41,286 bases of DNA from a virus (Duplodnaviria; Heunggongvirae; Uroviricota; Caudoviricetes). Position numbers and translations under genes: made by a program. Shown here piece after piece: positions 4,363 through 41,004 of the stretch. The stretch lies in IMG/VR virus record IMGVR_UViG_2851933302_000002, positions 1-41,286 of that record, one strand, 5' to 3'. The notes under the pieces are model-generated. The model saw only the letters and a program-made list of their open reading frames with translations, was not told the origin of the DNA and did no database searches. How positions within the stretch are numbered: the first letter of the stretch is position 1; every line of letters begins with the position of its first letter.

Positions 4363-4911
4363 TATCGCGTCCTCAACAATGAATTTTGTGATGCGGTGCC
4401 TGGTGCCTCCAGGTGACGTTAACCAGTTAACAATTAACGCCGGATACAGAGAATCCACCCATAACACTGTTTTTGGTTTTAACTGTTCCGCGTGCGCTTA
4501 GCCGCATTCACTGCATCACAAAATTCACTTTAAAAAGGGTGGCAGAGCAGTCACGGAGTAGAACTGATGCCACCAAAGACTACACATGGATATTGTGGCG
4601 GGGCTGTCACTTAAGCGTATGGTCAGCCTGACAACCCGGTGTCCTCAAGGGGAAGGAATAACCCCGCCATACTTACCGCCGCGCCATTTCGCGGATTGCC
4701 ACAACCGGAAGCGCACGGTCGAATTAAATTTAACGACAAAGTACAGAGAGACGAGCTTCTCCGTGTGCTTTCGCGTTATGCTCTGACTTTTCAGAGAAAT
4801 ATCCTTTCAGTAAACTGTCAGTGCCGGATGTTCACCCGTGTCCGGCGCACGCACTCCACTTCACCCGTGGAGAACTCCTTAATTACCAACCTTAGCTTCG
4901 TTGGTTAGCTA

Positions 4912-5201: not shown

Positions 5202-5558
5202 TTACTCGAGAGGAAATTGGTTATGAGTACAATCAAGTTTTCTTGCCCAGAATGTGGTGGCGAAGTCTTTGACACATCCTTTAAGCCGCAGGGCTCTGAC
5301 AGTTTCGCGGGAGCCATCTGCAAAAATTGTGGTCACCTTGTAACTGAAGATGAGTCCTCGCAGTTCGATGACGAAATCGTTGACAATATCTTCGGTGCAC
5401 TCACCAGAGACTTTCTGAAGTAAAGGCGCATACCGCTTAGTTACCGCTCTGATAATTCTTACCTGTCCGGCAATGGCGCTGATGTCAATATAAAGCGCCA
5501 TTGCTGCTTCTTTGCCGATCCCGGGATGCCTTCCATTCTGATGTTTGACTTCGCCCAC
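5202..5558 (-). CDS. Hypothetical protein, first gene downstream of the pL-like promoter
   Basis: 118-aa ORF, GTG start with AGAGGA SD. Fits leftward operon logic, but fully overlaps a plausible plus-strand zinc-ribbon ORF. Confidence 0.35.
   Translation of the reverse strand: MGEVKHQNGRHPGIGKEAAMALYIDISAIAGQVRIIRAVTKRYAPLLQKVSGECTEDIVNDFVIELRGLIFSYKVTTIFADGSRETVRALRLKGCVKDFATTFWARKLDCTHNQFPLE
5223..5423 (+). CDS. Hypothetical zinc-ribbon protein (CxxC-x26-CxxC), antisense to the leftward operon
   Basis: 66-aa ORF with SD GAGAGGA and two CxxC pairs (CPECGG ... CKNCGH). Lies entirely inside minus-strand ORF 5202..5558; only one of the two is likely real. Confidence 0.3.
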   Translation: MSTIKFSCPECGGEVFDTSFKPQGSDSFAGAICKNCGHLVTEDESSQFDDEIVDNIFGALTRDFLK

Positions 5559-5740
5559 TGAGAAATCCTCTGTTTCCCCTTAACGCCGGGGTAGCGGAAC
5601 AAAAACCTGCTGCATAGTTATTAAAGTTGAACCCTGCCGTCATGTTCTTACGCCTCGGGCTGGCTACTTAACCCCTGACCACTGCCTGGTAACTCGAAGT
5701 ATTGCCCTGCATTCTGTGGGGCGGGGTGGGTGGCAGGTAT

Positions 5741-5790
5741 ATAATGTACTTTGCGTTCATTGTTGTAAAGTACTTTTAGTACATTTTGTG
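5741..5790 (-). promoter_or_regulatory. pL-like early-left promoter with overlapping operator repeats
   Basis: On the minus strand: -35 TTTACA (plus coordinates 5764-5769), 17-nt spacer, -10 CATTAT (5741-5746). Overlaps operator motif ATGTACT-N4-GTTC (5744-5758) and a GTAC-rich near-palindrome (5768-5788). Confidence 0.45.
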
Positions 5791-5859
5791 TGTAAAAAAA
5801 TGAGATGGGATAAAGTGAAGCACAAACCCGGAGGAAGGCGCTACCGGATTTATGCTGGT

Positions 5860-6279
5860 TTAAGAGGCTTTTTGTTTTTTCTTTCGTGCTAACTCTTCGT
5901 AAATTGCATTGTACTTCTGTTTTTTCTCTTCAAGAGTTTTTAAAAGTTCATCTGTCTCACTGTCAGGGAGCTCGTCCAGAAGGTCAATGATGATTTTTTG
6001 TCTTGGATTTAACTCCTGATAGAAACGTACCTGTCCACTTTCTTCTGTATCCTCTCCCAAAAGATAGGTTGGTGTTGTTCCTATTAGTGTTGCTAATTCC
6101 CTTAATTTCTCCCGGCGAGGAATTGTTTCGCCATTAAACCATTTGCTAACCGCTTTTGGTGTTAATTTCATTCGACGGGCAATTTCTGCCTGCCTTCCAT
6201 GTTGTTCATAACCAGCGTTTTCACAGGCTAGCGCAAGCCTACTGGCGAACTCTTTACGCGCTTTATCTTCATGAACCAT
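5860..6279 (-). CDS. Prophage repressor, XRE-family HTH (RacR/CI-like, no peptidase domain)
   Basis: 139-aa ORF with an N-terminal HTH (QAEIARRMKLTPKAVSKWFNGE). Divergent from the cro-like gene, with operator repeats in the intergenic region. Confidence 0.85.
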   Translation of the reverse strand: MVHEDKARKEFASRLALACENAGYEQHGRQAEIARRMKLTPKAVSKWFNGETIPRREKLRELATLIGTTPTYLLGEDTEESGQVRFYQELNPRQKIIIDLLDELPDSETDELLKTLEEKKQKYNAIYEELARKKKQKAS

Positions 6280-6299
6280 AAGTTCAATGATATTCGCTC

Positions 6300-6342
6300 T
6301 TGAATGTACTGTCAGTTCTGTTATAGCATGTACTCAAAGTTC
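6300..6342. promoter_or_regulatory. Divergent immunity-region promoter/operator (pR/pRM-like)
   Basis: Two direct copies of ATGTACT-N4-GTTC (6304-6318 and 6328-6342) lie between the repressor and cro-like starts. A candidate rightward promoter (-35 TTGAAT 6300-6305, -10 TATAGC 6322-6327) overlaps them. Confidence 0.45.
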
Positions 6343-6358
6343 ACATTGTGAGGGTGAT

Positions 6359-6613
6359 ATGAACCAGAAAACACTTGAAGATGTAATCAAAACTGTTCGC
6401 GTTGCTGTTGTGGCCGACGTTTGTGGTGTCAGCCAAAGAGCAATCTATAAATGGATGGATAACGGAAAATTGCCTCGCACAGAATATACCGGCGAAACAA
6501 ATTACGCTGAAAAAATCGCTCTTGCATCAAACGGATTATTTTCTGCCGATGCAATTTTAACTATTGGCAGGAATAAAACTACTACGAAAAAGCTGATGGG
6601 AGTTGATTCATGA
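6359..6613 (+). CDS. Cro-like / YdaS-like HTH regulator
   Basis: 84-aa ORF from the ATG at 6359 with SD GAGGGTG. HTH segment DVCGVSQRAIYKW. Translationally coupled to the next gene through an ATGA overlap. Confidence 0.7.
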   Translation: MNQKTLEDVIKTVRVAVVADVCGVSQRAIYKWMDNGKLPRTEYTGETNYAEKIALASNGLFSADAILTIGRNKTTTKKLMGVDS

Positions 6614-7035
6614 AAATCAAGCATGAACACATCCGCATGGCGATGAATGCCTGGGCGCATCCGGACGGCGAAAAAGTACCGGCTGCGAAAATTACCAAAG
6701 CGTATTTCGAGCTGGGAATGACGTTCCCGGAACTGTATGACGACAGCCATCCGGAAGCCCTGGCCCGTAATACCCAGAAAATTTTCCGTTGGCTGGATAA
6801 AGACACCCCTGATGCTGTTGAAAAAATGCAGGCTCTGTTACCGGCGATCGAAAAGGCGATGCCGCCTTTGCTGGTGGCCCGTATGCGCAGCCACAGTTCT
6901 GAATATTACCGTGAGATCGTCGAACGGAGGGATCGGCTGGTGAAGGATGTCGATGATTTTGTTGCGTCAGCGGTTGTTTTGTATGACCAGATGAATCGCG
7001 GCGGCCCGGCAGGGAATGCTGTGGTGATGCACTAA
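6610..7035 (+). CDS. YdaT-like protein (Rac-type early region)
   Basis: 141-aa ORF beginning MKIKHEHI. Assigned from the position after the cro/YdaS-like gene and recalled similarity to the YdaT family. Confidence 0.55.
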   Translation: MKIKHEHIRMAMNAWAHPDGEKVPAAKITKAYFELGMTFPELYDDSHPEALARNTQKIFRWLDKDTPDAVEKMQALLPAIEKAMPPLLVARMRSHSSEYYREIVERRDRLVKDVDDFVASAVVLYDQMNRGGPAGNAVVMH

Positions 7036-7042
7036 AAGCACG

Positions 7043-8020
7043 GTGTTCGGGGGGGTTATGAGCAGCAAGCTTCATGGTCTTGTCTGGGAAGGGTGCGCCT
7101 TCACCGGCATGATCTTATCCAGGGTGGCGGTTATGGCCCGTCTTGCAGACTACAGCAATGACGAGGGCGTGTCATGGCCTGCCATTGAAACTATCCGGCG
7201 TCAGATCGGTGCAAGAAGTGAATCCACAGTGAAATCGGCTATTGCAGAACTGGCGAAAGAGGGCTGGCTGACGAAGGAAGAGCGTAAGGTCGGTGGGCGT
7301 AATGTAAGCAATATCTATCGGCTTAATGTGGAAAAACTCGAAGCAGCTGCGGCGGCGGCGCGTGAGTCATATAAACCGAAAAGAAAAATTAGCCCGGCAA
7401 AAAATGACCCGTTAACAGTTGACCCGTCAAATATTGACCCCTCAACGGTTGACCCGTCAAATTTTGATGGATCAACTGTTGATAAAAAACTGCCGATTAG
7501 GGGGGCGATGATTGACCCCGATCCGTCAGTATTAAAACCTGATCCGTCAGATAAAAGATCTTCTTGTCCGGACGCTTCGCAACCGGACCCGCAGACGGCT
7601 GAACAGGATTTTTTAACCCGACACCCTGACGCGGTTGTGTTCAGTGCGAAAAAACGCCAGTGGGGAAGTCAGGAAGATTTGGTGTGCGCACAGTGGATCT
7701 GGGGACGAATCGTGAGTCTTTACGAGCAGGCGGCCAGCTATGATGGCGAGATCACTAGACCGAAAGAACCCAACTGGACAGCATGGGCCAATGACGTTCG
7801 CACAATGCGGATGCTGGATGGCAGAACTCACAGACAAATTTGTGAAATGTTTGGGCGTCTCCAGCGGGATTCGTTCTGGGTAAAAAACATCATGAGTCCG
7901 GCAAAACTCCGGGAAAAATGGGATGAACTGGTTATCCGCCTGGGGCGTTCGCCTGCGCAGCGTTGCGTGAATCACATTTCTGAACCGGACACTGAAATAC
8001 CGCCGGGATTCAGGGGGTGA
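7043..8020 (+). CDS. Replication initiation protein (O-like, N-terminal winged helix) with internal iteron-like repeats
   Basis: 325-aa ORF with an N-terminal HTH-like segment. The coding sequence holds 12-bp direct repeats (TTGACCCGTCAA type, 7404-7460) and GATCCGTCAG repeats (7520-7550), as in a lambda-type ori inside O. Followed by a DnaC-like gene. Confidence 0.75.
   Translation: MFGGVMSSKLHGLVWEGCAFTGMILSRVAVMARLADYSNDEGVSWPAIETIRRQIGARSESTVKSAIAELAKEGWLTKEERKVGGRNVSNIYRLNVEKLEAAAAAARESYKPKRKISPAKNDPLTVDPSNIDPSTVDPSNFDGSTVDKKLPIRGAMIDPDPSVLKPDPSDKRSSCPDASQPDPQTAEQDFLTRHPDAVVFSAKKRQWGSQEDLVCAQWIWGRIVSLYEQAASYDGEITRPKEPNWTAWANDVRTMRMLDGRTHRQICEMFGRLQRDSFWVKNIMSPAKLREKWDELVIRLGRSPAQRCVNHISEPDTEIPPGFRG
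7404..7550 (+). repeat. Candidate replication origin iterons inside the initiator gene
   Basis: Four copies of (A/T)TGACCC(G/C)T(T/C)AA at 15-bp spacing (7404-7415, 7419-7430, 7434-7445, 7449-7460), then an A-rich stretch and two GATCCGTCAG copies (7520-7529, 7541-7550). Confidence 0.55.
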
Positions 8021-8026
8021 CGTGTC

Positions 8027-8773
8027 ATGAAAAACATTGCGGCAGTTGGGGTTCTTGAACGTATTCGCAGACTTGCACCACAGGGGTCGGTTCCACCGTA
8101 CCGGACGGTGGAGGAGTGGCGGGAATGGCAACTTGCTGAAGGACGAAAACGCAGCGAGGAGATTAACCGCCAGAATCGCCAGTTGCGGGTGGAAAAAATC
8201 CTGAATCGTTCGGGCATCCAGCCTCTGCACAGCAAATGCTCGTTTGCAAATTATCAGGTGCAGAACGACGGGCAAAAATACGCGCTGAGCCAGGCCAAAT
8301 CCATAGCTGACGAACTGATGACCGGGTGCACGAATTTTGTGTTCAGCGGTAAAACCGGCACCGGGAAAAATCACCTTGCAGCGGCGATGGGCAACCGGCT
8401 GATGGTGAAGGGGCGCAGCGTGATTATCGTCACCGTGTCTGACGTCATGAGCGTGTTGCATGACAGCTACGACAACGGCAAATCCGGGGAAAAATTTTTA
8501 CAGGAGCTTTGCGGGGTTGATTTGCTGGTCCTGGATGAAATAGGCGTTCAGCGGGAGACGAAAAACGAGCAGGTGGTATTGCACCAGATAATTGATCGCC
8601 GGACAGCATCACTGTGCAGTGTCGGGATGTTAACAAACCTGAATCATGCCGCAATGAGTACGCTTCTTGGTGAGAGGATTATGGACCGCATGACCATGAA
8701 CGGTGGTCGATGGGTGACGTTTAACTGGGATAGCTGGCGTCCAAATGTCAGCAATATGAGGGTTGTGAAGTAA
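8027..8773 (+). CDS. DnaC-like helicase loader / replication ATPase (AAA+)
   Basis: 248-aa ORF with Walker A GKTGTGKNHL and Walker B LLVLDEIG. Lies immediately downstream of the initiator gene. Confidence 0.85.
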   Translation: MKNIAAVGVLERIRRLAPQGSVPPYRTVEEWREWQLAEGRKRSEEINRQNRQLRVEKILNRSGIQPLHSKCSFANYQVQNDGQKYALSQAKSIADELMTGCTNFVFSGKTGTGKNHLAAAMGNRLMVKGRSVIIVTVSDVMSVLHDSYDNGKSGEKFLQELCGVDLLVLDEIGVQRETKNEQVVLHQIIDRRTASLCSVGMLTNLNHAAMSTLLGERIMDRMTMNGGRWVTFNWDSWRPNVSNMRVVK

Positions 8774-8794
8774 TTTTGTCCGGAGGAAATTTTA

Positions 8795-9565
8795 ATGGAA
8801 ACCGTATCTGACGCACTGAAAGCACTGAAAAAAGCCTCTTCACATGTGGTGGCAGCTCGCCTTGGAATCAGTCGTGAAGAGGCTGTCAACGAGCTGTGGG
8901 AACTCAAAAGAAAAGGCGTCGTTGATAAAACTGGTCACACCTGGTTTCTGGCTGGCGAAGGTGAATCCCGGGTAACCGAAGAGCGGCCAGTAAAATCTGA
9001 AGCACAGGATATGCTGACCGGGGAGGTCGAACAAAAAGTTACCGCAGACATGATGATTGAGTTTATCGGTCAGGATGGGGCTAAAACGTGTGAGGAACTG
9101 GCGGGTAAGTTCGGTGTCAGTACTCGCAAGGTTGCTTCCACGCTGGCGGTGGTAACCGCAACGGGGCGGCTGGCACGCGTTAATCAGAACGGTAAATTTC
9201 GTTACTGCATGCCGGGCGATAATTTACCAGCAGAGCCGAAAGCCGCGCTGGTAACGGAAAGTGATGGTAAGGCCTTTCCTCAGCCAGCAGGTGCTGCGTT
9301 ACCAGGCCGGGAAGCCGCAACACAGGAAGAAATTAAAACAGAAACTGTGGCGGACATTGTGCAGTCGTTGCCATCGTTTACCGAAACGCAAGCAGATGAG
9401 CTGATTTTTCCGTCCCTGCGCAGGGCAAACCTGGCGCTGCGCAGGGCGAAAAGTGATGTTCAGAAGTGGGAGCGAGTCTGCGCCGCGCTGCGGGAGCTGA
9501 ACAAGCACCGGGATATTGTTCGACAGATTACTGATTCTTCCCGCCGTGTTGTATCGGAAAAGTGA
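8795..9565 (+). CDS. Hypothetical phage protein with two winged-helix-like modules
   Basis: 256-aa ORF at the start of the nin-like region. Two HTH-like segments (VAARLGISREEAVNEL; CEELAGKFGVSTRKVAS). No confident family assignment. Confidence 0.5.
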   Translation: METVSDALKALKKASSHVVAARLGISREEAVNELWELKRKGVVDKTGHTWFLAGEGESRVTEERPVKSEAQDMLTGEVEQKVTADMMIEFIGQDGAKTCEELAGKFGVSTRKVASTLAVVTATGRLARVNQNGKFRYCMPGDNLPAEPKAALVTESDGKAFPQPAGAALPGREAATQEEIKTETVADIVQSLPSFTETQADELIFPSLRRANLALRRAKSDVQKWERVCAALRELNKHRDIVRQITDSSRRVVSEK

Positions 9566-10006
9566 TTGCCGGAGGCGCTTATGGCAAAAGTATTTACACA
9601 AGAAGAGCGGGAAAAAATTAAAGGGCAGGTTGTTGAACTTGTACGTCTGAGCGGTCGCGAGACGTTACGGCAACTGGAAGCCAAGACAGGTGCGACAAGA
9701 TATCTGATGAGCGTTCTTGCCAGAGAGCTGGTTGCCAGTGGCGATGTATACGACTCTGGTTACGGGTTATTCCCGTCTGAACAGGCGCGTAAGGACTGGC
9801 AAAATGCTCGCAAAAAACTCTCAAGGGCAAAGGTGAAGAAACCTGCAGTGGTTGATCCGGACCTTATCTGGTCGTTACCAGACGGCGAAATACGCCGCTA
9901 CGACAGGCGCCTGAATATAATCTGTCGCGAGTGCCGGAAGAGCGAAGCTATGCAGCGTGTACTGGCATTTTATCAAGGAAATGTTAGGTATTTTAGACGT
10001 TACTAG
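9566..10006 (+). CDS. Hypothetical phage protein
   Basis: 146-aa ORF, tightly coupled to the upstream gene. Function unknown. Confidence 0.45.
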   Translation: MPEALMAKVFTQEEREKIKGQVVELVRLSGRETLRQLEAKTGATRYLMSVLARELVASGDVYDSGYGLFPSEQARKDWQNARKKLSRAKVKKPAVVDPDLIWSLPDGEIRRYDRRLNIICRECRKSEAMQRVLAFYQGNVRYFRRY

Positions 10007-10159
10007 ATTAAAGAGCATTAGTTCAGATGTGAATTGACATTTTCATGGCGCAGGGTAGAGCCAGCGTGGTTGTCCGCTTTGCGTCAAAACCAGATATTAC
10101 CAGATTTAGACATATATTCCCGATAGACCTGCTCTGATGCTACACTCTGTGCTATTTTC

Positions 10160-10846
10160 ATGACCCCAATAAAAATATTTATGACTATTGCTGATTTCAA
10201 ACGGCCTAAATTGGAGCTCCCAAACGGGGCAAACAAACTACTACTGCACTCTTGCTGTGCTCCATGTTCCGGTGAAGTGATGGAGGCGCTTCAGGCCTCG
10301 GGAATCGACTACACCATCTTTTTCTACAACCCGAACATTCATCCTCAGAAAGAGTATTTAATTCGTAAGGATGAAAATATTCGCTTTGCTGAACAACACG
10401 GCGTGCCGTTTATCGATGCTGATTACGACACCGACAACTGGTTTGAACGTGCCAAAGGAATGGAATGGGAGCCTGAGAGGGGGATCCGTTGTACCATGTG
10501 TTTTGACATGCGTTTTGAGCGGACAGCGTTGTACGCTGCTGAAAATGGTTTCAGTGTGATCAGCAGTTCACTGGGCATTTCACGCTGGAAAAATATGCAG
10601 CAGGTTAACGAGTGTGGGCGGCGAGCTGTTGCGCATTATCCGGGTATGGTGTACTGGGATTATAACTGGCGCAAGCAGGGCGGCTCGTCCCGTATGATTG
10701 AAATCAGCAAGCGCGAAAAATTCTATCAGCAGGAATATTGTGGCTGTGTGTATTCTCTGCGCGATACCAATCTACACCGCAAATCTCAGGGACGCCCTCT
10801 TATCAAAATTGGCCAACTCCACTACGGAAAAGAAGAGAAGGAGTGA
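10160..10846 (+). CDS. QueH-like protein (DUF208, epoxyqueuosine reductase family)
   Basis: 228-aa ORF with the [11 protein letters not shown] motif and further Cys residues (CTMC, CGC) that I recall as characteristic of DUF208/QueH. Family assignment is from memory of the motif. Confidence 0.65.
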
Positions 10847-11083
10847 TTTTATGGATCACCTTTCTGATTGATTTCATATTGGCGAGGTGACGTGAGTTAA
10901 GTAGAATGGCTGCGGGTGCTTGAGGCTATCTGTCTCAGGCATGAACACTGAAAGGCAGATAGAGAAAAGCCCCAGTTAACATTTCGCGTCCTGCAAGACG
11001 CTTAACATTAATCTGAGGCCCAATCTATGTCTCACAAATGTAGGTTAGCCTCTTACGTGCCGAAAGGCAAGGGGAAGCAGGCT

Positions 11084-11239
11084 ATGAAGCAGCAAAAGGC
11101 GATGTTAATCGCCCTGATCGTCATCTGTTTAACCGTCATAGTGACGGCACTGGTAACGAGGAAAGACCTCTGCGAGGTACGAATCCGAACCGGCCAGACG
11201 GAGGTCGCTGTCTTCACAGCTTACGAACCTGAGGAGTAA
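11084..11239 (+). CDS. hok: Hok/Gef-family type I toxin (HokD/RelF-like)
   Basis: 51-aa peptide MKQQKAMLIALIVICLTVIVTALVTRKDLCEVRIRTGQTEVAVFTAYEPEE, matching my recollection of HokD. Structured leader upstream (10860-11080) would hold mok/sok elements. Terminator follows at 11310-11337. Confidence 0.9.
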   Translation: MKQQKAMLIALIVICLTVIVTALVTRKDLCEVRIRTGQTEVAVFTAYEPEE

Positions 11240-15449: not shown

Positions 15450-15525
15450 GGCCCTTTAGCTCAGTGGTGAGAGCGAGCGACTCATAATCGCCAGGTCGCT
15501 GGTTCAAATCCAGCAAGGGCCACCA
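15450..15525 (+). tRNA. ileZ: tRNA with anticodon CAT (Ile2/Met type; ileZ-like)
   Basis: 76-nt cloverleaf. Acceptor stem GGCCCTT/AAGGGCC, anticodon CAT at 15483-15485, T-loop GGTTCAAATCC, 3' CCA. Confidence 0.85.
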
Positions 15526-15532
15526 TCACATA

Positions 15533-15609
15533 CCGCCATTAGCTCATCAGGAAAGAGCGCCAGCTTTCGAAGCTGGTTGCGCGGAGTTCGGGTCCCCGAA
15601 GGCGGTCCA
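15533..15609 (+). tRNA. argN: tRNA-Arg (anticodon TCG; argN-like)
   Basis: 77-nt candidate. Anticodon stem CCAGC/GCTGG with loop TTTCGAA (anticodon TCG), 3' CCA. One mismatch in the acceptor stem and one in the T-stem. Confidence 0.7.
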
Positions 15610-15622
15610 TTATCTGTATCCT

Positions 15623-15699
15623 GCGTTGTTAGCTCAGCCGGACAGAGCAATTGCCTTCTAAGCAATCGGTCACTGGTTCGAATCCAGTACAACGCGCCA
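15623..15699 (+). tRNA. argO: tRNA-Arg (anticodon TCT; argO-like)
   Basis: 77-nt cloverleaf. Acceptor GCGTTGT/ACAACGC, anticodon loop CTTCTAA (TCT), T-loop GGTTCGAATCC, 3' CCA. Confidence 0.85.
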
Positions 15700-15743: not shown

Positions 15744-15960
15744 CTCACAATTCAGGCGGTTGACTGTTGTCTGGTTTGCGGGGAGTTTGTTAAAAGAAAC
15801 TGGCATGGTGAATCCCCCTGTGCGGAGGGGCAATCAGCGAGTAGGTATATGGGATAATCGCGGATTCAGGTGCTGGTACTGAATTCACCGGGAGGCACCC
15901 GGCACCATGCAATGGCACATAGCGCCACTCTCCAGCCCCTCTCCGGAGGGGCTTTTCTGT
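15744..15960 (+). repeat. Structured repeat unit, copy A (promoter-like TTGACT plus hairpins plus terminator)
   Basis: Shares blocks with copy B: CTCACAATTCAG..GTTGAC, GCATGGTGAATCCCCCTG.GCGGAGGGGC, CACCGGGAGGCACCCGGCACCATG, and the terminator hairpin AGCCCCTCTCCGGAGGGGCT followed by T-run. Confidence 0.6.
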
Positions 15961-16147
15961 GCCGGATACATCACAGTTTCTGGAACCTTAGGTACTACAG
16001 TATCAGTCAGGGTGCTATATTTTCAGATGTGATGAAAGCCTGTCAGCAGGCAGGGCGTATCGGAAATGACCCAGTAGAGAAAACGTTGACTCAGATACCG
16101 GTGCTGAGTTACCGGGAAACCGGCATCACATGACCGCTATCCTTCCA

Positions 16148-16211: not shown

Positions 16212-16446
16212 CTCACAATTCAGTAAGTTGACAGTTGCCTGTCAGACTGGGCATTTGTTAAAAAAATTTCGCATGGTGAATCCCCCTGAGCGGAGGGGCG
16301 ACTGGTGACGGTATAATCTCTGATTATCAAAACGAGAATGACGCGGGTTTAGTGGCACCGGGCTGAACTCACCGGGAGGCACCCGGCACCATGTGCATGA
16401 TGATACAGATACGCGGCTTTAGCCCCTCTCCGGAGGGGCTTTCTTA
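16212..16446 (+). repeat. Structured repeat unit, copy B
   Basis: Second tandem copy of the copy A element. Contains TTGACA, a perfect TATAAT at about 16309-16314, the same GC hairpins and the AGCCCCTCTCCGGAGGGGCT terminator hairpin. Confidence 0.6.
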
Positions 16447-16451
16447 TGGAC

Positions 16452-21694: not shown

Positions 21695-21879
21695 AATGTT
21701 TCCCCATATTCAGTGTTGCTGATTTGTATTATCTGAAGTTGCTTTTACGTTAATTTGATGCAGATCAATTAATACGATACCTGCGTCATAATTGATTATT
21801 TCTCGTGGTTTGATGGCGTACACACATGTTGTGATAAACCTTATATAGATGATAATCATTATCATTTTCGTGGGTCCTT

Positions 21880-30048: not shown

Positions 30049-30624
30049 ATGGCGATAAAAGGGCTTGATCAGGCGATTGATAATCTGAGCCGGGTTCGTA
30101 AAAACGCCATTCCGGCGGCTTCAGCAATGACGATTAACCGCGTGGCCACAACGGCGATTAATCAGTCTTCATCACAGGTTGCCCGGGAGACAAAGGTACG
30201 CCGGAAACTGGTTAAGGAACGGTCCAGACTGAAACGGGCCACGGTCAGAAATCCGAATGCAAAAATTATCGTTAACCGCGGTGATCTCCCTGTGATTAAG
30301 CTGGGGATCAGAATGCTGGGGCGTCGTCCGGACAGCATACTCAAAGCCGGTCAGCATCGTTATCAGCGGGCATTTATCCAGCGATTAAATAATGGGCGCT
30401 GGCATGTTATGCAACGTCTTCCCCAGGCCAGATATGAGGAGGGCAATGACGACAAGGGAAGGAAAAAGCGTAATCGCCTTCCCATTCAGGTGGTGAAAAT
30501 CCCGATGGCGGCCCCACTGAAACAGGCATTTGATGAGAATGTTGACCGTATCCGGCGTGAACGCCTGCCTAAAGAACTGGCATACGCGCTGAAACAACAA
30601 CTGAGGATTGCGATAAAACGATGA
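30049..30624 (+). CDS. Z: Tail completion protein gpZ
   Basis: 191-aa ORF with N- and C-termini matching recalled lambda gpZ (MAIKGL..., ...[22 protein letters not shown]). Confidence 0.9.
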   Translation: MAIKGLDQAIDNLSRVRKNAIPAASAMTINRVATTAINQSSSQVARETKVRRKLVKERSRLKRATVRNPNAKIIVNRGDLPVIKLGIRMLGRRPDSILKAGQHRYQRAFIQRLNNGRWHVMQRLPQARYEEGNDDKGRKKRNRLPIQVVKIPMAAPLKQAFDENVDRIRRERLPKELAYALKQQLRIAIKR

Positions 30625-31016
30625 AACACACTGACATTCGTGCCGCAGTGCTGGATGCACTCGAGCAGCATGAACACGGGGCGACGCTGTTTGATGGTCG
30701 CCCCGTTGTTTTTGACGAAGAGGATTTTCCTGCGATCGCGGTTTATCTGACGGATGCAGAGTATACCGGTGAAGAGCTGGATGCAGATACCTGGCGGGCC
30801 ACGCTGCATATTGAGGTGTTTTTACCGGCACAGGTACCGGATTCAGAGCTTGATCAGTGGATGGAAAGCCGGATTTACCCGGCGATGACTGCGATCCCGG
30901 CACTGGCAGGACTGATTACCACGATGGTTACGCAGGGCTATGAGTATCGTCGTGATGACGATATGGCGTTATGGAGCTCTGCGGATCTGACTTATTCCAT
31001 TACATACGAGATGTGA
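30621..31016 (+). CDS. U: Tail terminator protein gpU
   Basis: 131-aa ORF highly similar to recalled lambda gpU throughout. Confidence 0.9.
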
Positions 31017-31023
31017 GGACGAT

Positions 31024-31770
31024 ATGGCAACACCAAATCCCCTGGAGCCGGTAAAAGGTGCCGGTACCACTCTGTGGGTTTACAACGGCAAGGCTGATGC
31101 TTATGCAAACCCGTTGTCAGACGATGACTGGCAGCGACTGGCTAAGGTGAAGGATCTGACGCCGGGCGAGATGACGGCTGAACCCTACGATGATAACTAC
31201 CTGGATGATGAAGACGCGGACTGGACCGCGACCGGGCAGGGACAGAAATCTGCAGGTGATACCAGTTTTACGCTGGCCTGGAAACCGGGAGAGGAAGGTC
31301 AGAAAGGGCTTATAGGCTGGTTTGAAAGCGGCGATGTCCGGGCCTATAAAATCCGTTTTCCGAATGGCACGGTGGATGTGTTTCGTGGCTGGGTCAGCAG
31401 TATCGGTAAGGCCGTGACGGCGAAAGAAGTGATCACCCGCACGGTGAAAGTCACTAACGTGGGTAAACCTTCTGTAGCGGAAGAACGCAGCAAAATTACG
31501 CCGGTCACTGCGATTAAGGTAACGCCGACAGGTACGGTTGAAAAAGGGAAAACAACCACCCTGACCGTTACTGTGGAACCGGAAAATGCAACGGATAAGA
31601 CATTCAGGGCGATTTCCGCCGATCCATCAAAAGCCACCATTAGCGTGAAAGATATGACGATTACTGTGACGGGGGTTAAGGATGGAAAAGTCAGCATCCC
31701 TGTGATTTCCGGTAATGGTCAGTTTGCTGCGGTGGCTGAAATTACCGTTAATAATGTGCCGGGTGGCTAA
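31024..31770 (+). CDS. V: Major tail tube protein gpV (with C-terminal Ig-like domain)
   Basis: 248-aa ORF highly similar to recalled lambda gpV ([48 protein letters not shown]). Confidence 0.9.
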
Positions 31771-31788: not shown

Positions 31789-32220
31789 ATGTTCCTGAAA
31801 ACAGAACAATTTGAATATAACGGTGTATCCGTCACGCTTTCTGAGCTGTCTGCGCTGCAGCGTATTGAGCATCTTGCCCTCCTGAAACGGCGGGCAGAAG
31901 AGGCTGAAGCCAGCGGCAACCTGCAGGTGAGTGTGGAAGATCTTGTCAGAACCGGCGCGTTTCTGGTGGCGATGTCCCTGTGGCATAACCATCCACAGAA
32001 AACGCAGTCACCGTCAATGAATGAGGCCGTGATGAAGATAGAGCAGGAAGTGCTCACCACCTGGCCTGCCGATGCCATTGCCCGGGCGGAAGACGTGGTG
32101 TTGTGCCTGTCCGGGATGATCGAAGCTGTTCGTCCGGATACTGATATTACTGAAGTGGCGAAAAATAACACGCTGACTGATGATGATTTTTCTGCGGGAA
32201 AGTCTTCGACGGCGAGCTGA
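31789..32220 (+). CDS. G: Tail assembly chaperone gpG
   Basis: 143-aa ORF in the lambda G position. Ends just after the slippery heptamer GGGAAAG (32196-32202). Confidence 0.85.
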   Translation: MFLKTEQFEYNGVSVTLSELSALQRIEHLALLKRRAEEAEASGNLQVSVEDLVRTGAFLVAMSLWHNHPQKTQSPSMNEAVMKIEQEVLTTWPADAIARAEDVVLCLSGMIEAVRPDTDITEVAKNNTLTDDDFSAGKSSTAS

Positions 32221-32660
32221 ACTTTGCCCTCAGACTGGCGCGTGAGATGGGGAGACCCGACTGGCGCGCCATGCTTGCCGGGATGACATCCACCGAATAT
32301 GCCGACTGGCACCGTTTTTACCGCACGCATTATTTTCAGGATACCCAGCTGGATATGCATTTTTCCGGGCTGACGTACGCTGTACTCAGCCTGTTTTTTT
32401 GCGATCCGGATATGCATCCCTCTGATTTCAGTCTGCTTGTCCCCCGGCATGAGGAAGAGCAGGTGGAGAGGCCGGATGAGGACAAAATGCTGATGCAGAA
32501 AGCGGCAGGACTTGCCGGAGGCGTCCGGTTCGGTGGGGACGGAGGGCGCGATATTTTATCGTCTGCGGATGTGGCGGATGTCATGGTGGATGATGCCGCA
32601 TTAATGATGGCTTCAGCGGGGATTCCGGGAGGTGTGAGATATGTCCCAGCCGGTTGGTGA
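31789..32660 (+). CDS. GT: Tail assembly chaperone gpGT (product of programmed -1 ribosomal frameshift at GGGAAAG)
   Basis: Slippery sequence G GGA AAG at 32196-32202 in the G frame. A -1 slip moves into the T frame (…[26 protein letters not shown]…), which runs to 32660. Same arrangement as lambda G/T. Confidence 0.8.
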
Positions 32661-35600
32661 TCTTGTTATTGACCTTAGTCTGGATGCTGTCCGTTTCGAT
32701 GAGCAGATGAGCCGGGTAAGGCGTCATTTTTCAGGTCTGGATACCGACGCCAGAAAAACCGCCAGTGCTGTTGAACAGGGCCTGAGCCGCCAGGCGCTGG
32801 CTGCACAAAAAGCCGGGATTTCCGTCGGGCAGTATAAAGCGGCCATGCGAACCCTGCCCGCACAGTTTACGGATATCGCCACGCAGCTTGCCGGTGGTCA
32901 GAATCCCTGGCTGATCCTGCTGCAACAGGGCGGTCAGGTGAAGGACTCCTTCGGCGGGATGATCCCCATGTTCAGGGGGCTTGCCGGTGCGATCACCCTG
33001 CCGATGGTCGGGGTCACCTCGCTGGCGGTGGCGACAGGTGCGCTGGTGTACGCCTGGTACCAGGGAGATTCCACGCTTTCAGCGTTTAATAAAACCCTGG
33101 TTCTTTCCGGTAATCAGTCCGGACTGACTGCCGATCGCATGCTGACGCTCTCCAGAGCCGGACAGGCCGCAGGGCTGACGTTTAACCAGGCGAGTGAGTC
33201 ACTGGCAGCCATGGTGAATGCCGGTGTGCGTGGTGGTGAACAGTTTGATGCCATCAACCAGAGTGTCGCGCGTTTTGCTTCTGCATCCGGTGTGGAGGTG
33301 GACAAGGTTGCAGAGGCTTTCGGAAAACTGACCACTGACCCGACGTCGGGGCTGATTGCGATGGCGAAGCAGTTCCATAACGTGACGGCGGAGCAGATTG
33401 CGTATGTTGCTCAGTTGCAGCGTTCCGGCGATGAAACCGGGGCATTGCAGGCGGCGAACGAGGCCGCAACGAAAGGGTTTGATGACCAGACCCGCCGCCT
33501 GAAAGAGAACATGGGCACGCTGGAGACCTGGGCAGACAGGACAGCGCGGGCATTCAAATCCATGTGGGATGCGGTGCTGGATATTGGTCGTCCTGATACC
33601 GCGCAGGAGATGCTGATTAAGGCAGAGGCTGCGTTTAAGAAAGCAGACGACATCTGGAATCTGCGCAAGGATGATTATTTTGTTAACGATGAAGCGCGGG
33701 CGCGTTACTGGGATGATCGTGAAAAGGCCCGTCTTGCGCTTGAAGCCGCCCGAAAGAAGGCTGAGCAGCAGACTCAACAGGACAAAAATGCGCAGCAGCA
33801 GAGCGATACCGAAGCGTCACGGCTGAAATATACCGAAGAGGCGCAGAAGGCTTACGAACGGCTGCAGACGCCGCTGGAGAAATATACCGCCCGTCAGGAA
33901 GAACTGAACAAGGCACTGAAAGACGGGAAAATCCTGCAGGCGGATTACAACACGCTGATGGCGGCGGCGAAAAAGGATTATGAAGCGACGCTGAAAAAGC
34001 CGAAACAGTCCGGCGTGAAGGTGTCTGCGGGCGATCGTCAGGAAGACAGTGCTCATGCTGCCCTGCTGACGCTTCAGGCAGAACTCCGGACGCTGGAGAA
34101 GCATGCCGGAGCGAATGAGAAAATCAGCCAGCAGCGCCGGGATTTGTGGAAGGCAGAAAGTCAGTTCGCGGTACTGGAGGAGGCGGCACAACGTCGCCAG
34201 CTGTCCGCACAGGAGAAATCCCTGCTGGCGCATAAAGATGAGACGCTGGAGTACAAACGCCAGCTGGCTGCACTTGGCGACAAGGTTACGTATCAGGAGC
34301 GCCTGAACGCGCTGGCGCAGCAGGCGGATAAATTCGCACAGCAGCAACGGGCAAAACGGGCCGCCATTGATGCAAAAAACCGGGGGCTGACTGACCGGCA
34401 GGCAGCGCGGGAAGCCACGGAACAGCGCCTGAAGGAACAGTATGGCGATAATCCTCTGGCGCTGAATAACGTCATGTCAGAGCAGAAAAAGACCTGGGCG
34501 GCTGAAGACCAGCTTCGCGGGAGCTGGATGGCAGGCCTGAAGTCCGGCTGGAGTGAGTGGGAAGAGAGCGCCACGGACAGTATGTCGCAGGTAAAAAGTG
34601 CAGCCACGCAGACCTTTGATGGTATTGCACAGAATATGGCGGCGATGCTGACCGGCAGTGAGCAGAACTGGCGCAGCTTCACCCGCTCCGTGCTGTCCAT
34701 GATGACAGAAATTCTGCTTAAGCAGGCAATGGTGGGGATTGTCGGGAGTATCGGCAGCGCTATTGGCGGGGCTGTTGGTGGCGGCGCATCCGCGTCAGGC
34801 GGTACAGCCATTCAGGCAGCTGCGGCGAAATTCCATTTTGCGACCGGAGGATTTACGGGAACCGGCGGCAAATATGAGCCAGCGGGGATTGTTCACCGTG
34901 GTGAATTTGTCTTCACGAAGGAGGCGACCAGCCGGATTGGTGTCGGCAACCTGTATCGTCTGATGCGCGGGTATGCGGAAGGTGGTTATGTCGGCGGTGC
35001 CGGAAGTCCGGCGCAGATGCGGCGGGCGGAAGGTATCCGGTTTGAGCAGAACAACAGCGTGGTGATTCAGAACGACGGTATCAACGGACAGGCCGGGCCG
35101 CAGCTGATGAAAGCGGTGTATGAGATGGCCCGTAAAGGTGCGCAGGATGAGATCCAGTCCGTCACCGACGGCGTGAAGGTAAAAGTGAGCCGTGTTCCTG
35201 ACGGCGTTGCTGAATACAGCGTGTGGGGGCTGAAGCTGCCGACGCTGCGCCAGCGCCTGTTCCGCTGCGTGAGTATCCGTGAGAACGACAACGGCACGTA
35301 TGCCATCACCGCCGTGCAGCATGTACCGGAAAAAGAGGCCATCGTGGATAACGGGGCGCACTTTGACGGCGACCAGAGCGGCACGGTGAACGGGGTCACA
35401 CCGCCAGCAGTGCAGCATCTGACTGCCGAAGTCACCGCAGACAGCGGGGAATACCAGGTGCTGGCGCGCTGGGATACGCCGAAGGTGGTGAAGGGTGTGA
35501 GCTTTATGCTTCGCCTGACCGTGGCAGCGGATGACGGCAGTGAGCGGCTGGTCAGCACGGCCCGGACGACGGAAACCACATACCGCTTCACGCAACTGGC

Positions 35601-36945
35601 GCTGGGAAACTACAGGCTGACAGTCCGGGCGGCAAATGCCTGGGGGCAGCAGGGCGATCCGGCATCGGTATCGTTCCGGATTGCCGCCCCGGCAGCGCCG
35701 TCGCGGATTGAGCTGACGCCGGGCTATTTTCAGATAACTGCCACGCCGCATCTTGCGGTTTATGATCCGACGGTACAGTTTGAGTTCTGGTTCTCGGAAA
35801 CGCGGATTACCGATATCAGGCAGGTTGAAACCACAGCCCGCTACCTTGGCACGGGGCTGTACTGGATAGCCGCCAGTATCAATATCAAACCGGGCCATGA
35901 TTATTACTTTTATATCCGCAGTGTGAACACCGTTGGCAAATCGGCATTCGTGGAGGCCGTCGGTCGGGCGAGCGATGATGCGGAAGGTTACCTGGATTTT
36001 TTCAAAGGCAAGATAACCGAATCCCATCTCGGTAAAGAGCTGCTGAAAAAAGTCGACCTGACGGAGGATAACGCCAGCAGACTGGATGAGTTTTCGAAAG
36101 AGTGGAAGGACGCTAACGATAAATGGAATGCTATGTGGGGCGTCAAAATTGAGCAGACCAAAGACGGCAAACATTATGTCGCGGGTATTGGCCTCAGCAT
36201 GGAGGACACGGAGGAAGGCAAGCTGAGCCAGTTTCTGGTTGCCGCCAATCGTATCGCGTTTATTGACCCGGCAAACGGGAATGAAACGCCGATGTTTGTG
36301 GCGCAGGGCAACCAGATATTCATGAACGACGTGTTCCTGAAACGCCTGACGGCTCCCACCATTACCAGCGGTGGAAATCCGCCGGCATTTTCCCTGACAC
36401 CGGACGGAAAGCTGACCGCTAAAAATGCGGATATCAGCGGTAATGTGAATGCAAATTCAGGGACGCTCAACAACGTCACGATTAACGAGAACTGTCGGGT
36501 TCTGGGAAAACTGTCCGCGAACCAGATTGAAGGCGATCTCGTTAAAACAGTGGGCAAAGCTTTCCCCCGGGACTCCCGTGCACCGGAGCGGTGGCCATCA
36601 GGGACCATTACCGTCAGGGTTTATGACGATCAGCCGTTTGACCGGCAAATTGTTATTCCGGCGGTGGCTTTCAGCGGTGCCAGACATGAGCGGGAGAATA
36701 GCGATACTTATTCGTCATGCCGCCTGATAGTGAAGAAAAACGGGGCTGAAATTTATAACCGAACGGCTCTGGATAATACGCTGATATACACGGGTGTTAT
36801 TGATATGCCTGCAGGCAGTGGCGTAATGACACTGGAGTTTTCTGTATCAGCATGGTGGGTAAATGGTTGGTATCCCACAGCAAGTATCAGCGATTTGCTG
36901 GTTGTTGTGATGAAGAAAGCCACTGCAGGCATCACGATTAGCTGA
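32641..36945 (+). CDS. In-frame fusion of tape measure protein (gpH, N-terminal about 840 aa) to the C-terminal half of central tail fibre/host specificity protein (gpJ); deletion derivative
   Basis: 1434-aa ORF. The first about 840 aa track recalled lambda gpH nearly residue by residue up to …[10 protein letters not shown]. The sequence then continues …[23 protein letters not shown]… through Fn3-like and C-terminal receptor-binding regions that match recalled lambda gpJ. No M, L, K or I genes are present anywhere in the window. Confidence 0.85.
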
Positions 36946-36964
36946 ATTTTATAACCCAGATACG

Positions 36965-36988
36965 GGCGCCAGAAATGGCGCCTTTTTT
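36965..36988 (+). terminator. Rho-independent terminator after the H-J fusion gene
   Basis: GGCGCC-AGAAAT-GGCGCC hairpin followed by TTTTTT. Confidence 0.8.
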
Positions 36989-37012
36989 ATTGCAGAAAAG
37001 CGAGAGGTAATT

Positions 37013-37612
37013 ATGCGTAAATTATGTGCTGTTATTCTGTCCGCAGTAGTCTGGCTGGTTGCCGCTGGTACGCCAGCGAGTGCAGCAGAGCATCAGTCCA
37101 CACTAAGCTCCGGGTATATTCAGTCCCATACTGATATGCCCGGCAACGATGACCTGAAGGGCATTAACGTGAAATACCGTTATGAATTTACGGACACGCT
37201 GGGGCTGGTGACGTCATTCAGTTATGCTGGAGACAAGAATCGCCAGATTACCCGTTACAGTGATACCCGCTGGCATGAAGATTCAGTGCGTAACCGCTGG
37301 TTCAGCATGATGGCGGGGCCATCTGTGCGCGTGAATGAGTGGTTCAGCGCATATGCGATGGCGGGTGTGGCTTACAGCCGTGTTTCGACTTTCTCCGGGG
37401 ATTATCTCCGCGTAACTGACAACAAGGGGAAAACGCACGATGTGCTGACCGCAAGTGATGATGGTCGCCACAGTAACACGTCTCTGGCGTGGGGGGCTGG
37501 CGTGCAGTTTAACCCGACCGAATCCGTGGCCATTGATATTGCTTATGAAGGCTCCGGCAGTGGTGACTGGCGCACTGACGGTTTTATCGTGGGTGTCGGT
37601 TATAAATTCTGA
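37013..37612 (+). CDS. lom: Outer membrane protein Lom (Ail/PagC/OmpX family)
   Basis: 199-aa ORF with a signal peptide and a beta-barrel pattern ending in ...GVGYKF. Position after J as in lambda. Confidence 0.9.
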
Positions 37613-37628
37613 TTAGCAGTGTTATGAC

Positions 37629-37655
37629 AGCCCGCATATTCTGGCGGGCTTTTTT
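37629..37655 (+). terminator. Rho-independent terminator after lom
   Basis: AGCCCGC-ATATTCTG-GCGGGCT hairpin followed by TTTTT. Confidence 0.8.
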
Positions 37656-37666
37656 GTGGGGTGGAT

Positions 37667-39496
37667 ATGGCAGCAGTAAAAATCTCAGGTGTGCTGAAAG
37701 ATGGTGCGGGAAAACCAATACAGAACTGCACTATTCAACTGAAGGCAAAACGTAACAGCACAACGGTTGTGGTGAACACGGTGGCCTCAGAAAATCCGGA
37801 TGAAGCTGGACGTTACAGCATGGATGTTGAGTATGGTCAGTACAGCGTCACCCTGCTGGTTGAAGGTTTTCCGCCTTCACATGCCGGGACCATTACCGTT
37901 TATGAAGGTTCCAGACCAGGTACGCTGAATGATTTTCTGACTGCCCCCGACGAAGGCGACCTGAAGCCAGATGTGGTGAAACGATTTGAAGATTTGACAA
38001 GTCAGGCGCGACGAAGTGCAGATGTGGCAATATCAGCGACAAAAAGGGCAGAAGCGTTACTGTCTGAAATGCAGGGAATAGCCGATAGTTTTCCCGGTTT
38101 GCGCTTTGAGAACTTTGACGACATCGTGAGTCGTTGCACTACTGCAATGTTAAAACTGGAACAACCCGAGGTTGTTGATACATCAATATCTTTAAAAATA
38201 AAAGAAAATATCGATTTTAATTATGTCGGTGCAGTTAACGGATATTGCGATATTTCTGAACCAGAAAAGTATAAAGTCGAAATGTATGCTTATACAACCG
38301 GAGAGTATTTTAACGGCGACGCTAATTTGAATAGTGACGGAACTTTCTATTTCAGACGTTGCTGGACGGGAGCAAAACAGTTTCGTCTTATTCGGATTGA
38401 GGATAATGCGTGGATCACAACGCTGGAGTTTCCACTGCTCATTCGTAGCTACTGGATGCCGGAGGACGCAGACCCCGAAGTGATCAGGGTGATGAAAGAT
38501 CGGTGTTACACGTATGACCAGGCGCTGGCAGCACTGGCGTTGATGGTTCAGCGACATGAGGCTGTAGAAAGATACGTTGCGGGCTTGTGTGCGCTTGTTG
38601 ATGAAAACGGTGGAGTAAAGTTTTTTGTTAACAGGCTGTCTGCCATGTCACCGCGTACCTATTACCGCTTGGGCAATGCGGCATGGGTTTATTATGCTCT
38701 TGCTTTCTATCTGGAGAAGTATCCGGACGGTACTCAGACTGCGCGGGTCAGAGAAAAGCTATTGGCAGGCATTGCCTGGCTGGATACTTTTCTGGTGAGC
38801 ACACCAGGCGACCTGCGTGAAGGCCTGTATAAAGGGGGGCAGGGGCGTTATGTGGACGGCAATTTTGATGAAACTTTCGTCGCCGAATGGTGCGCACTGG
38901 AGCATAACGTTGATATCTGGTTTTTGTTTGAACTGATGGGACGGCTGGGATTTGACGGTTTCAGTGAGCGGGCTGACAGGCTGGCAAAGAGTATCATCAG
39001 AGGTCTGTGGGTGGAAGATGAAGGCCGATTTCGACAGGGGGTTCATTCAACCCACTATGACAACGCAGCGGCGCTGGATCAGTCTTCCTGGGGCGGATTG
39101 TTTGTTGCCAATATTGATGCTGAGAAAGCGGCTAAGTGCCGAAAATATATGGGGCGTTTTTTATTTGGTACGAGGGAAACCACGGGTTACACACCGTACC
39201 ACCCTGATTATGGTTATAGTGGTCACAGCCGTGGCGTGTGGGTGGAAGGAACGGCAGGTGTGGCACTTTTTGAGCGCAAGCTGGGTAATGAGCTGAATGC
39301 GGTGAATCTTGTGGCAGCAATGGCTCCACTTTTTAATGAGTACGGTTATCGTGATTCTTGCGATAACCTGGCATACGATGTGCTGCCTTCCTGGCCATCA
39401 ACAACAAACACTGCCTGGATCATTCTGGCTGTAAAGCCAGATAATTTCTGGTTAGTGGATTCGCCAGAAATGGATGTAGGGACAATCCGCTATTGA
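37667..39496 (+). CDS. stf: Side tail fibre-like protein: Stf N-terminal tail-attachment domain fused to an unrelated C-terminal domain, possibly enzymatic
   Basis: The N-terminal about 100 aa (MAAVKISGVLKDGAGKPIQNCTIQLKAKRNSTTVVVNTV…GFPPSHAGTITVYEGS) match the recalled lambda Stf N-terminus. The remaining about 500 aa lack the fibrous repeats of lambda Stf and are rich in Trp/Tyr helical segments (YYRLGNAAWVYYALAFYLEKY, WVEGTAGVALFE), suggestive of an alpha/alpha-toroid fold. An AT-rich stretch (38160-38420) marks the junction. Confidence 0.7.
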   Translation: MAAVKISGVLKDGAGKPIQNCTIQLKAKRNSTTVVVNTVASENPDEAGRYSMDVEYGQYSVTLLVEGFPPSHAGTITVYEGSRPGTLNDFLTAPDEGDLKPDVVKRFEDLTSQARRSADVAISATKRAEALLSEMQGIADSFPGLRFENFDDIVSRCTTAMLKLEQPEVVDTSISLKIKENIDFNYVGAVNGYCDISEPEKYKVEMYAYTTGEYFNGDANLNSDGTFYFRRCWTGAKQFRLIRIEDNAWITTLEFPLLIRSYWMPEDADPEVIRVMKDRCYTYDQALAALALMVQRHEAVERYVAGLCALVDENGGVKFFVNRLSAMSPRTYYRLGNAAWVYYALAFYLEKYPDGTQTARVREKLLAGIAWLDTFLVSTPGDLREGLYKGGQGRYVDGNFDETFVAEWCALEHNVDIWFLFELMGRLGFDGFSERADRLAKSIIRGLWVEDEGRFRQGVHSTHYDNAAALDQSSWGGLFVANIDAEKAAKCRKYMGRFLFGTRETTGYTPYHPDYGYSGHSRGVWVEGTAGVALFERKLGNELNAVNLVAAMAPLFNEYGYRDSCDNLAYDVLPSWPSTTNTAWIILAVKPDNFWLVDSPEMDVGTIRY

Positions 39497-39823
39497 CTCT
39501 CTTGTTGTTTGATAAACCGACAAAAGGATAAATATCAGCGATCCATTCTGTGCTGTTTGATTGTGCGCTCCCCGCTCAGAATTGCGCGTCAATTAGCCTA
39601 TAAAAAATCGCGAAGATACAATACGTACTTCATTGCGCTTGAACACCCCAGGCATAATATCGCTGGATTGAAATGTTCGGACATGGCAAGCGAATGAATA
39701 TGCCGTGGTGGGGCGGTTTTGATCCGCGCGCGTGGGATGTGGCAAGCCTGATGGATTTTGCTGTGCCGGTGGTGGCGTGTCTGCTGGTCTGGCTGTTGGT
39801 TAATCGTGGGTGAAAAAAGGTGA

Positions 39824-39952
39824 GCTGTATATGCAACGGAGGAAGAAACCTCGTTGCTGGAAGCCTGGAAAAAGTATCGGGTGTTGCTGAACCGTGTTGA
39901 TACATCAACTGCCCCTGATATTGAGTGGCCTGTGAACCCTGTCAGGGAGTAA
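39824..39952 (+). pseudogene. Tail fibre assembly protein (Tfa) 3' remnant
   Basis: Frame without a start codon encodes …[38 protein letters not shown], the conserved Tfa C-terminus. Duplicated as the 3' end of the intact-looking gene at 40732..41001. Confidence 0.6.
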
Positions 39953-40006
39953 TCATTGGGATTATGCCGCAGCACGTCTTAAGCAAGAACGTGCTGCGGT
40001 TGGATG

Positions 40007-40675: not shown

Positions 40676-40731
40676 GTTATAGTTTTATTTGTGAATTAAA
40701 TCAATTATGGCGATGAATTACAAGGGGTTAA

Positions 40732-41001
40732 ATGCTGCCGCAGCATAGCGATATTGAAATAGCCTGGTATGCTTCGATACAGCAGGAGCCGAATGGCTGG
40801 AAGACCGTCACCACACAGTTCTACATCCAGGAATTCAGTGAGTATATTGCGCCACTGCAGGATGCTGTAGATCTGGAAATCGCAACGGAGGAAGAAAGAT
40901 CGTTGCTGGAGGCATGGAATAAATATCGGGTATTGTTGAATCGTGTTGATACATCAACTGCACCTGATATTGAGTGGCCTGCAAATCCTGTCAGGGAGTA
41001 A
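40732..41001 (+). CDS. Tail fibre assembly protein (Tfa-like), short form
   Basis: 89-aa ORF whose C-terminus ([32 protein letters not shown]) is the conserved Tfa C-terminal motif. May be N-terminally truncated relative to canonical Tfa of about 190 aa. Confidence 0.55.
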
Positions 41002-41004
41002 TCA

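Follow-up and report, generated by a model that had tools for sequence, protein, structure and literature searches.

The window analysed here is a stretch of 41,286 nucleotides of viral DNA (IMG/VR record IMGVR_UViG_2851933302_000002), in which an open reading frame resembling the epoxyqueuosine reductase QueH lies among lambdoid phage genes. The question raised by this locus is why a temperate phage of E. coli should carry an enzyme that would complete queuosine (Q) in tRNA, when its host has an enzyme of its own for that purpose. QueG and QueH are described as unrelated families, of which QueG is cobalamin-dependent (PMC4646009, PMC5615194) and one of four cobamide-dependent enzymes of E. 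coli (PMC11841063), while QueH is presented as an alternative that needs no cobalamin (PMC5615194, PMC10378866). The same reaction is predicted for both enzymes, and both are encoded in queH-carrying E. coli. Such a pairing has been noted elsewhere, since Acinetobacter baylyi reportedly keeps both QueG and QueH, as is said to have been described by Zallot in 2017. Both are also kept in S. aureus, where their expression profiles differ (PMC13443448).

Coding sequence and start codon

The plus strand of the window contains an uninterrupted ORF of 228 codons at 10160-10846, whose product includes the motifs LHSCCAPCS, CxxC (RCTMC) and CGC (YCGC). A previous reading, made from the sequence only, had taken these limits as those of the gene; the reading frame stands, but the start is better placed further downstream. 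PGAP places the CDS of identical E. coli records at 10181-10846, the N-termini of homologs fall at or after the residue encoded at 10181 in the alignment, and ATG 10160 is unconserved in related loci and has a conserved -10-like motif only ~14 nt upstream of it. Because these observations agree, the true start is most likely ATG 10181, which gives a protein of 221 amino acids. The identical protein WP_000150294.1 bears the RefSeq name 'epoxyqueuosine reductase QueH'; the identity of the gene is unremarkable and a matter of existing annotation, its location in a phage alone being mildly unusual. The coding features are as follows.

10181-10846, plus strand: queH coding sequence (221 amino acids and stop codon), based on the ORF list, the PGAP CDS, the PF02677 match and dN/dS
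10247-10270, plus strand: HSCCAPCS codons (H23-S-C25-C26-A-P-C29-S30), based on the sequence and its alignment to 7lc5
10490-10501, plus strand: CxxC codons (C104-T-M-C107), aligned to C87 and C90 of T. maritima QueH
10739-10747, plus strand: CGC codons (C187-G-C189), aligned to C169 and C171 of T. maritima QueH

Family, fold and ligand positions

The only Pfam family matched was PF02677 (QueH/DUF208), with 221.5 bits (E = 1.1e-65; gathering cutoff 23.5 bits) over profile positions 1-174 of 175, which bears out the family assignment made earlier from the motifs. A phmmer search of the PDB returned T. maritima QueH only (7lc5 and its mutants; E = 8e-22 for 7lc5). An AF2 model built from 44 homologs was of moderate confidence (pLDDT 76.5, pTM 0.77), and T. 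maritima QueH entries occupied Foldseek ranks 1-5 against it, with target-normalised TM scores of 0.76-0.79. Other alpha-hydrolase-fold enzymes, LarE and TtuA, came next and well behind (TM < 0.5). As modelled, the window protein has the QueH fold, a variant of the adenine-nucleotide alpha-hydrolase fold.

The NCBIfam search gave no model match despite the PGAP name QueH, and hence no equivalog-level evidence. The PHROGs search matched only phrog_3217, a family of 'unknown function' with 188 positions, whose alignment covers residues 41-228 of the 228-aa ORF (window 10280-10846), beginning at Met41 and leaving out the CCAPC motif. PHROG-based annotation therefore misses both this motif and the QueH function, which may be the reason why the copy in Escherichia phage HannyBb is labelled 'hypothetical protein'. 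Many database gene calls also begin late, at query residue 34 in the 221-aa numbering.

Residues C25, C26, C104, C107, C187 and C189 align to C9, C10, C87, C90, C169 and C171 of T. maritima QueH, so that all six cysteines of that enzyme are kept, including the iron-sulfur ligands that the initial reading had expected. All six columns are Cys in 63 of 63 diverse full-length representatives, a sample drawn from the best 150 matches at 37-77% identity to the query and biased toward its relatives. At the column of C29, which aligns to T. maritima D13, 60 of the same query-biased representatives have Cys and three have Asp; judging from this alignment, CCAPC is typical of the family and the CCAPD of T. 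maritima a rarer form. The PDB depositors made mutant structures of the T. maritima enzyme with C9S and D13N (9DCO) replacements, implying that both positions matter mechanistically. In the work of Li et al. in 2021, the T. maritima cysteines are said to hold a [4Fe-4S] cluster and an adjacent iron.

The window protein thus shares with the solved T. maritima QueH (PDB 7LC5, 7LC7 and 9DEU) the same full-length domain, the predicted fold and the six Cys positions, and because of this match the conversion of oQ34-tRNA to Q34-tRNA would be expected of it. It differs from the T. maritima enzyme in being only ~30-33% identical, in having C29 in place of Asp13, in a conserved basic C-terminal extension of ~25 residues common to proteobacterial homologs, and in being encoded by a prophage rather than at a chromosomal locus.

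The host prophage

The window amounts in essence to a single, complete lambdoid prophage that has integrated beside ompW and is collinear with those found in E. coli CE10 and MS 21-1 (99.4% identity over window positions 1-29426). The left part comprises int, xis, exo, dicB and the DicF RNA, followed by repressor/cro-like genes, YdaT and an O-like gene. In the middle part are genes for a DnaC-like ATPase, DUF1627 and DUF977 proteins, queH, sok/hok, DUF968, RusA, Q and a DNA methyltransferase. The right part contains genes for tRNA-Ile, tRNA-Arg and tRNA-Arg, a SASA esterase, the lysis proteins and the head and tail proteins. This order upholds the location of queH in the nin-like region of a lambdoid phage, as first read from the sequence. 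The DicF antisense sRNA (61 bits; 4537-4588, minus strand) adjoins dicB, which marks the early-left region as Qin/dic-type. The features around queH and the tRNA genes are listed below.

10100-10900, plus strand: approximate minimal mobile cassette (leader and queH), based on breakpoints in 80 IMG/VR contigs
10138-10146, plus strand: candidate extended -10 element TGcTACACT, ~35 nt upstream of ATG 10181, proposed from conservation
10914-11239, plus strand: hok/sok type I toxin-antitoxin locus (Rfam sok, 120.5 bits, 10914-11089; hokD CDS in identical records)
15450-15699, plus strand: three tRNA genes, CAU (annotated tRNA-Ile), Arg-UCG and Arg-UCU, from ARAGORN, PGAP and Rfam

Compared with the otherwise near-identical prophage of MS 21-1, the window lacks ~4 kb between the tape-measure gene and gpJ, spanning the genes for a small tail protein that follows the tape measure, minor tail protein L, a C40 peptidase and a tail assembly protein, as well as the 5' part of gpJ. 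On the two sides of the missing stretch, window segments 33815-35157 and 35149-41286 correspond to positions 35887-37223 and 41270-47407 of the MS 21-1 locus, and the 3' region of the tape-measure gene is only 81.5% identical between the two. The window prophage is probably tail-defective. The CE10 copy carries an IS3-family insertion (CE10 locus 31866-33079) between the lysis and terminase genes that is absent from the window (~21815-21824), along with a frameshifted exonuclease gene and a frameshifted lysis gene.

The three tRNA genes noticed in the same phage at the outset were located by ARAGORN at 15450-15699. The first (15450-15525, plus strand) is called tRNA-Met(CAT) by ARAGORN and tRNA-Ile by PGAP in identical records; the latter annotation makes it a lysidine-type decoder of AUA, as in the ileZ-argN-argO trio known from Stx phages. 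Past the tRNA cluster, and before the gene for the SASA-family esterase, are two full-length STnc100 sRNA copies (136 and 165 bits; 15774-15964 and 16242-16451, plus strand). Queuosine is confined to tRNAs with GUN anticodons, namely those for Asp, Asn, His and Tyr (PMC9508795). Since none of the anticodons CAU, UCG and UCU is of this type, the phage tRNAs are not queuosine substrates, and the suggestion that they are tied to queH through modification is not supported. The link is thematic only, both being translation-related cargo.

The queH cassette

Among the best 80 of the 189 IMG/VR contigs that encode a relative, the homology block around queH has variable limits on both sides. In these 80 contigs the upstream ends cluster at ~7000, 8700, 9500 and 9800 and reach inward as far as the 10000-10199 bins; the downstream ends cluster at ~11000, 11300, 12400 and 13000, the 10900-10999 bin being the innermost. 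The alleles of HannyBb and E. coli B, which have a methyltransferase fragment as the upstream gene, are alignable to the window from ~10100. The slot immediately 3' of queH is variable and is occupied by hok/sok in the window. The corresponding slot of the K-12 MG1655 Qin prophage contains relBE, ydfV, flxA and ydfWX, and no queH is found there. In O157:H7 Z570 the same slot encodes a cytosine methyltransferase and an NgoMIV-type endonuclease (locus 7851-9861). The GC content of the queH cassette is slightly below that of its flanks.

Comparison with the HannyBb and E. coli B alleles gave dN/dS values of 0.046 and 0.060, respectively, at dS of about 0.27-0.29; queH is under strong purifying selection, with dN/dS of about 0.05. 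The E. coli B allele (WP_021568046.1) differs from the window protein by eight amino acids, and B strains carry it intact in a defective Qin prophage (REL606 locus 30377-31042; B-LamR 7001-7666). Around the intact gene in REL606, the ancestor of the long-term evolution experiment, are a frameshifted integrase gene, IS3 copies and truncated genes. The persistence of an intact queH in this dead prophage suggests that selection acts via the host.

The best explanation of these observations is that queH forms a self-contained, 'moron'-like cargo cassette within the nin region of lambdoid prophages of the Qin type. Like the lambdoid morons, it is discrete, is present in some prophages and absent from others, has variable junctions, lies near other cargo (hok/sok, relBE, restriction-modification genes) and is kept in defective prophages. 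Of the promoter and terminator that a moron would bring along, a candidate extended -10 element is conserved across phage and non-phage copies, but neither a canonical -35/-10 pair nor a terminator-like site immediately behind the gene was seen. The cassette is distinguished from other lambdoid and translation-related cargo in that it encodes a tRNA-modification enzyme of the queuosine pathway, a kind of which a survey of viral 7-deazaguanine genes reported none (PMC6884629).

Expression signals

Four prophage alleles with different upstream genes share, without change, the sequence TGATGCTACACT, which holds TGn and TACACT. In Scandinavium, Kluyvera and Enterobacter, the non-phage copies retain GCTACA[A/C]T at the same distance from queH, and the rest of their upstream DNA cannot be aligned. 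The -10-like motif appears again at ~-40 in loci of Erwinia, Brenneria, Symbiopectobacterium and Pantoea; in more distant clades other sequences are found instead. This conservation points to a native promoter that may travel with the cassette.

A two-hexamer consensus scan of the plus strand around queH found no convincing promoter or terminator and did not report TGcTACACT, and an Rfam search upstream of the gene detected no riboswitch (e.g. preQ1) at the gathering threshold, giving one spurious miRNA match (E = 0.19). Since no canonical sigma-70 promoter or terminator brackets the gene, queH may be transcribed merely by read-through from the early-right operon, which is equally possible and would be additive to the candidate promoter.

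Distribution and origin

The queG gene is core in E. coli, being present in 5425 of 5426 complete genomes, whereas queH is accessory and was found in 994 of them (~18%), nearly always as a single chromosomal copy. Among deposited phages, Escherichia phage HannyBb is the only clear carrier in 50,697 records. Two records of 'Acinetobacter phage MD-2021a' (CAKLQH020000001.1 and CAKLQF020000001.1; 328-379 kb) were rejected as carriers, being evidently bacterial chromosome; their QueH homolog, annotated 'putative prophage protein', is surrounded by soxR, cynX, tadA and a LysR regulator gene. QueH-like records from human-faecal 'Bacteriophage sp.', Staphylococcus and Listeria are unannotated and were unusable as phage evidence.

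QueH relatives occur across many Proteobacteria with 78-92% identity. The closest proteins (~79-86% identical) are QueH of Erwinia, Gibbsiella, Photorhabdus, Providencia, Proteus, Sodalis and Ewingella; the copies of Scandinavium, Kluyvera and Enterobacter are 88-92% identical and have neighbours unlike the phage genes of the window. More generally, the chromosomal queH genes of Erwinia, Serratia, Photorhabdus, Providencia, Gibbsiella, Enterobacter and Kluyvera encode proteins of the same length and termini with 78-92% amino acid identity, and the nearest of these relatives have the same -10-like upstream motif as the window copy. They differ from it in their non-phage contexts, the window copy being located between phage replication genes and hok/sok. 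In a scan of one genome per species, which yielded 80 loci, only E. albertii (100% identity) shares the DUF1627, DUF977 and hok neighbours.

A core chromosomal setting is seen in Serratia (S. grimesii, locus 5523-8741), where queH is flanked by genes read as yciI and tonB, with yciA-like and yciB-like genes next in line. In E. coli, the ompW site occupied by the prophage with queH is a few kb away from yciI-tonB-yciA-yciB-yciC (CE10 locus 5692-9777), a parallel with Serratia that may be coincidence. Capture of queH by aberrant excision near ompW was considered and rejected, as the gene is internal to the prophage and its phage context recurs only in E. albertii. The phage gene probably goes back to a queH resident in the chromosome of a different Enterobacterales bacterium.

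Proposed function and alternatives

It is probable that the locus encodes a functional, cobalamin-independent QueH on a prophage cargo cassette, which would complete Q when cobamides are scarce and has no role in DNA modification. The enzyme would reduce the epoxide of epoxyqueuosine (oQ) at position 34 to give Q in the tRNAs for Asp, Asn, His and Tyr, and the reduction would be carried out by an iron-sulfur centre held by the conserved cysteines. The prophage copy probably brought its own promoter, and the enzyme would let lysogens, and the phage during its growth, finish Q under conditions of cobamide scarcity. E. coli has no de novo cobalamin synthesis, and prophage queH would aid lysogens because the QueG of the host needs a cofactor that the host cannot make. 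To our knowledge, no E. coli phenotype separates oQ from Q and no difference in decoding between them has been established, so that the size of any benefit is uncertain.

A rather unlikely reading, though one compatible with a host benefit, is that the phage and not the host profits from the gene. On this account queH would be a delayed-early nin gene, transcribed from the early-right promoter after induction, and its product would top up Q34 for optimal decoding of NAU/NAC codons in the late structural genes, in parallel with the tRNAs for rare codons. The position of queH in the rightward early operon, which runs from the replication genes to Q with no terminator-like site upstream, is consistent with this account, as is the presence of the three tRNA genes as translation-related cargo on the same prophage. 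HannyBb, an inducible or free phage, retains the gene, and a review cites work in which Q increased during infection by a Shewanella phage and relates this to a bias for UAC codons in late phage genes (PMC13191261). On the other hand, the queH of the REL606 Qin prophage is intact and under purifying selection although this prophage is unable to make virions, which points to selection at the host level; the window prophage has itself lost ~4 kb of tail genes; and the -10-like element common to the non-phage chromosomal copies suggests independent transcription.

That queH is a non-functional passenger of a decaying prophage remnant is very improbable. The gene is redundant with a universally present queG and sits in a defective prophage region, as a passenger might, but its low dN/dS at this divergence, the presence of at least 80% of the gene length in 984 of the 994 matching genomes (with sampled rows annotated QueH), the conservation of all ligand positions and the identity of the protein encoded by the best 80 of the 189 viral-contig matches all argue against decay.

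There is likewise scant probability that an enzyme of the QueH fold was recruited for conflict, whether evading or triggering anticodon nucleases via the modification status of the Q-family tRNAs or acting on another epoxide or nucleoside. The cassette adjoins a hotspot of toxin-antitoxin and restriction-modification cargo, and proteins of the QueC family have been co-opted into defence systems (PMC13639016); yet no family among the PADLOC defence models matches QueH, the 78-92% identity to many proteobacterial QueH proteins leaves little room for a new function, and the flanks vary with no consistently linked partner gene. The DUF1627 protein encoded upstream (8795-9562, plus strand) gave weak PADLOC matches of the CARF/Csa3 type (E ~1e-3, 17 bits), which probably reflect a mere winged-helix or HTH likeness.

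Finally, a role in 7-deazaguanine modification of phage DNA (Dpd/preQ0/archaeosine-type) instead of tRNA, although synthesis genes for such modification are encoded by many phages, is hardly credible: no queC, queD, queE, folE, tgt or dpdA appears in the annotations of the two collinear prophages, which match nearly the whole window, so that the 7-deazaguanine pathway considered in the first reading is left unsupported; oQ in DNA would require a QueA-like step, which is absent; and the viruses examined by Hutinet et al. (2019) yielded no homologs of QueA, QueG or QueH (PMC6884629).

Significance

The enzyme family and its reaction are already known, and the modest value of the finding lies in the phage context, which appears undescribed in the literature searched, as no paper on a phage- or prophage-borne QueH was found. 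Prophages of E. coli often carry the gene (994 of 5426 complete genomes; 189 IMG/VR contigs) despite the negative viral survey (PMC6884629). It is about as likely as not that this is the first recognised virus-borne enzyme specific to tRNA queuosine maturation, borne on a cassette that uncouples Q34 from the cobamide supply in about one fifth of E. coli strains, including the B lineage (REL606) and not K-12. Plausibly, the prophage here provides its host with a cofactor-independent isozyme for an enzyme of the core genome, much as MetE backs up MetH.

If this is true, temperate phages trade tRNA-modification capacity as well as tRNAs, and the state of oQ versus Q in B12-free media would differ between common laboratory strains for a prophage-encoded reason. 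REL606, which carries queH, and K-12 MG1655, which has no queH in the Qin slot, provide a ready natural strain contrast, and carriage of the gene could be an unrecognised variable in studies of tRNA modification and codon usage in B12-free media.
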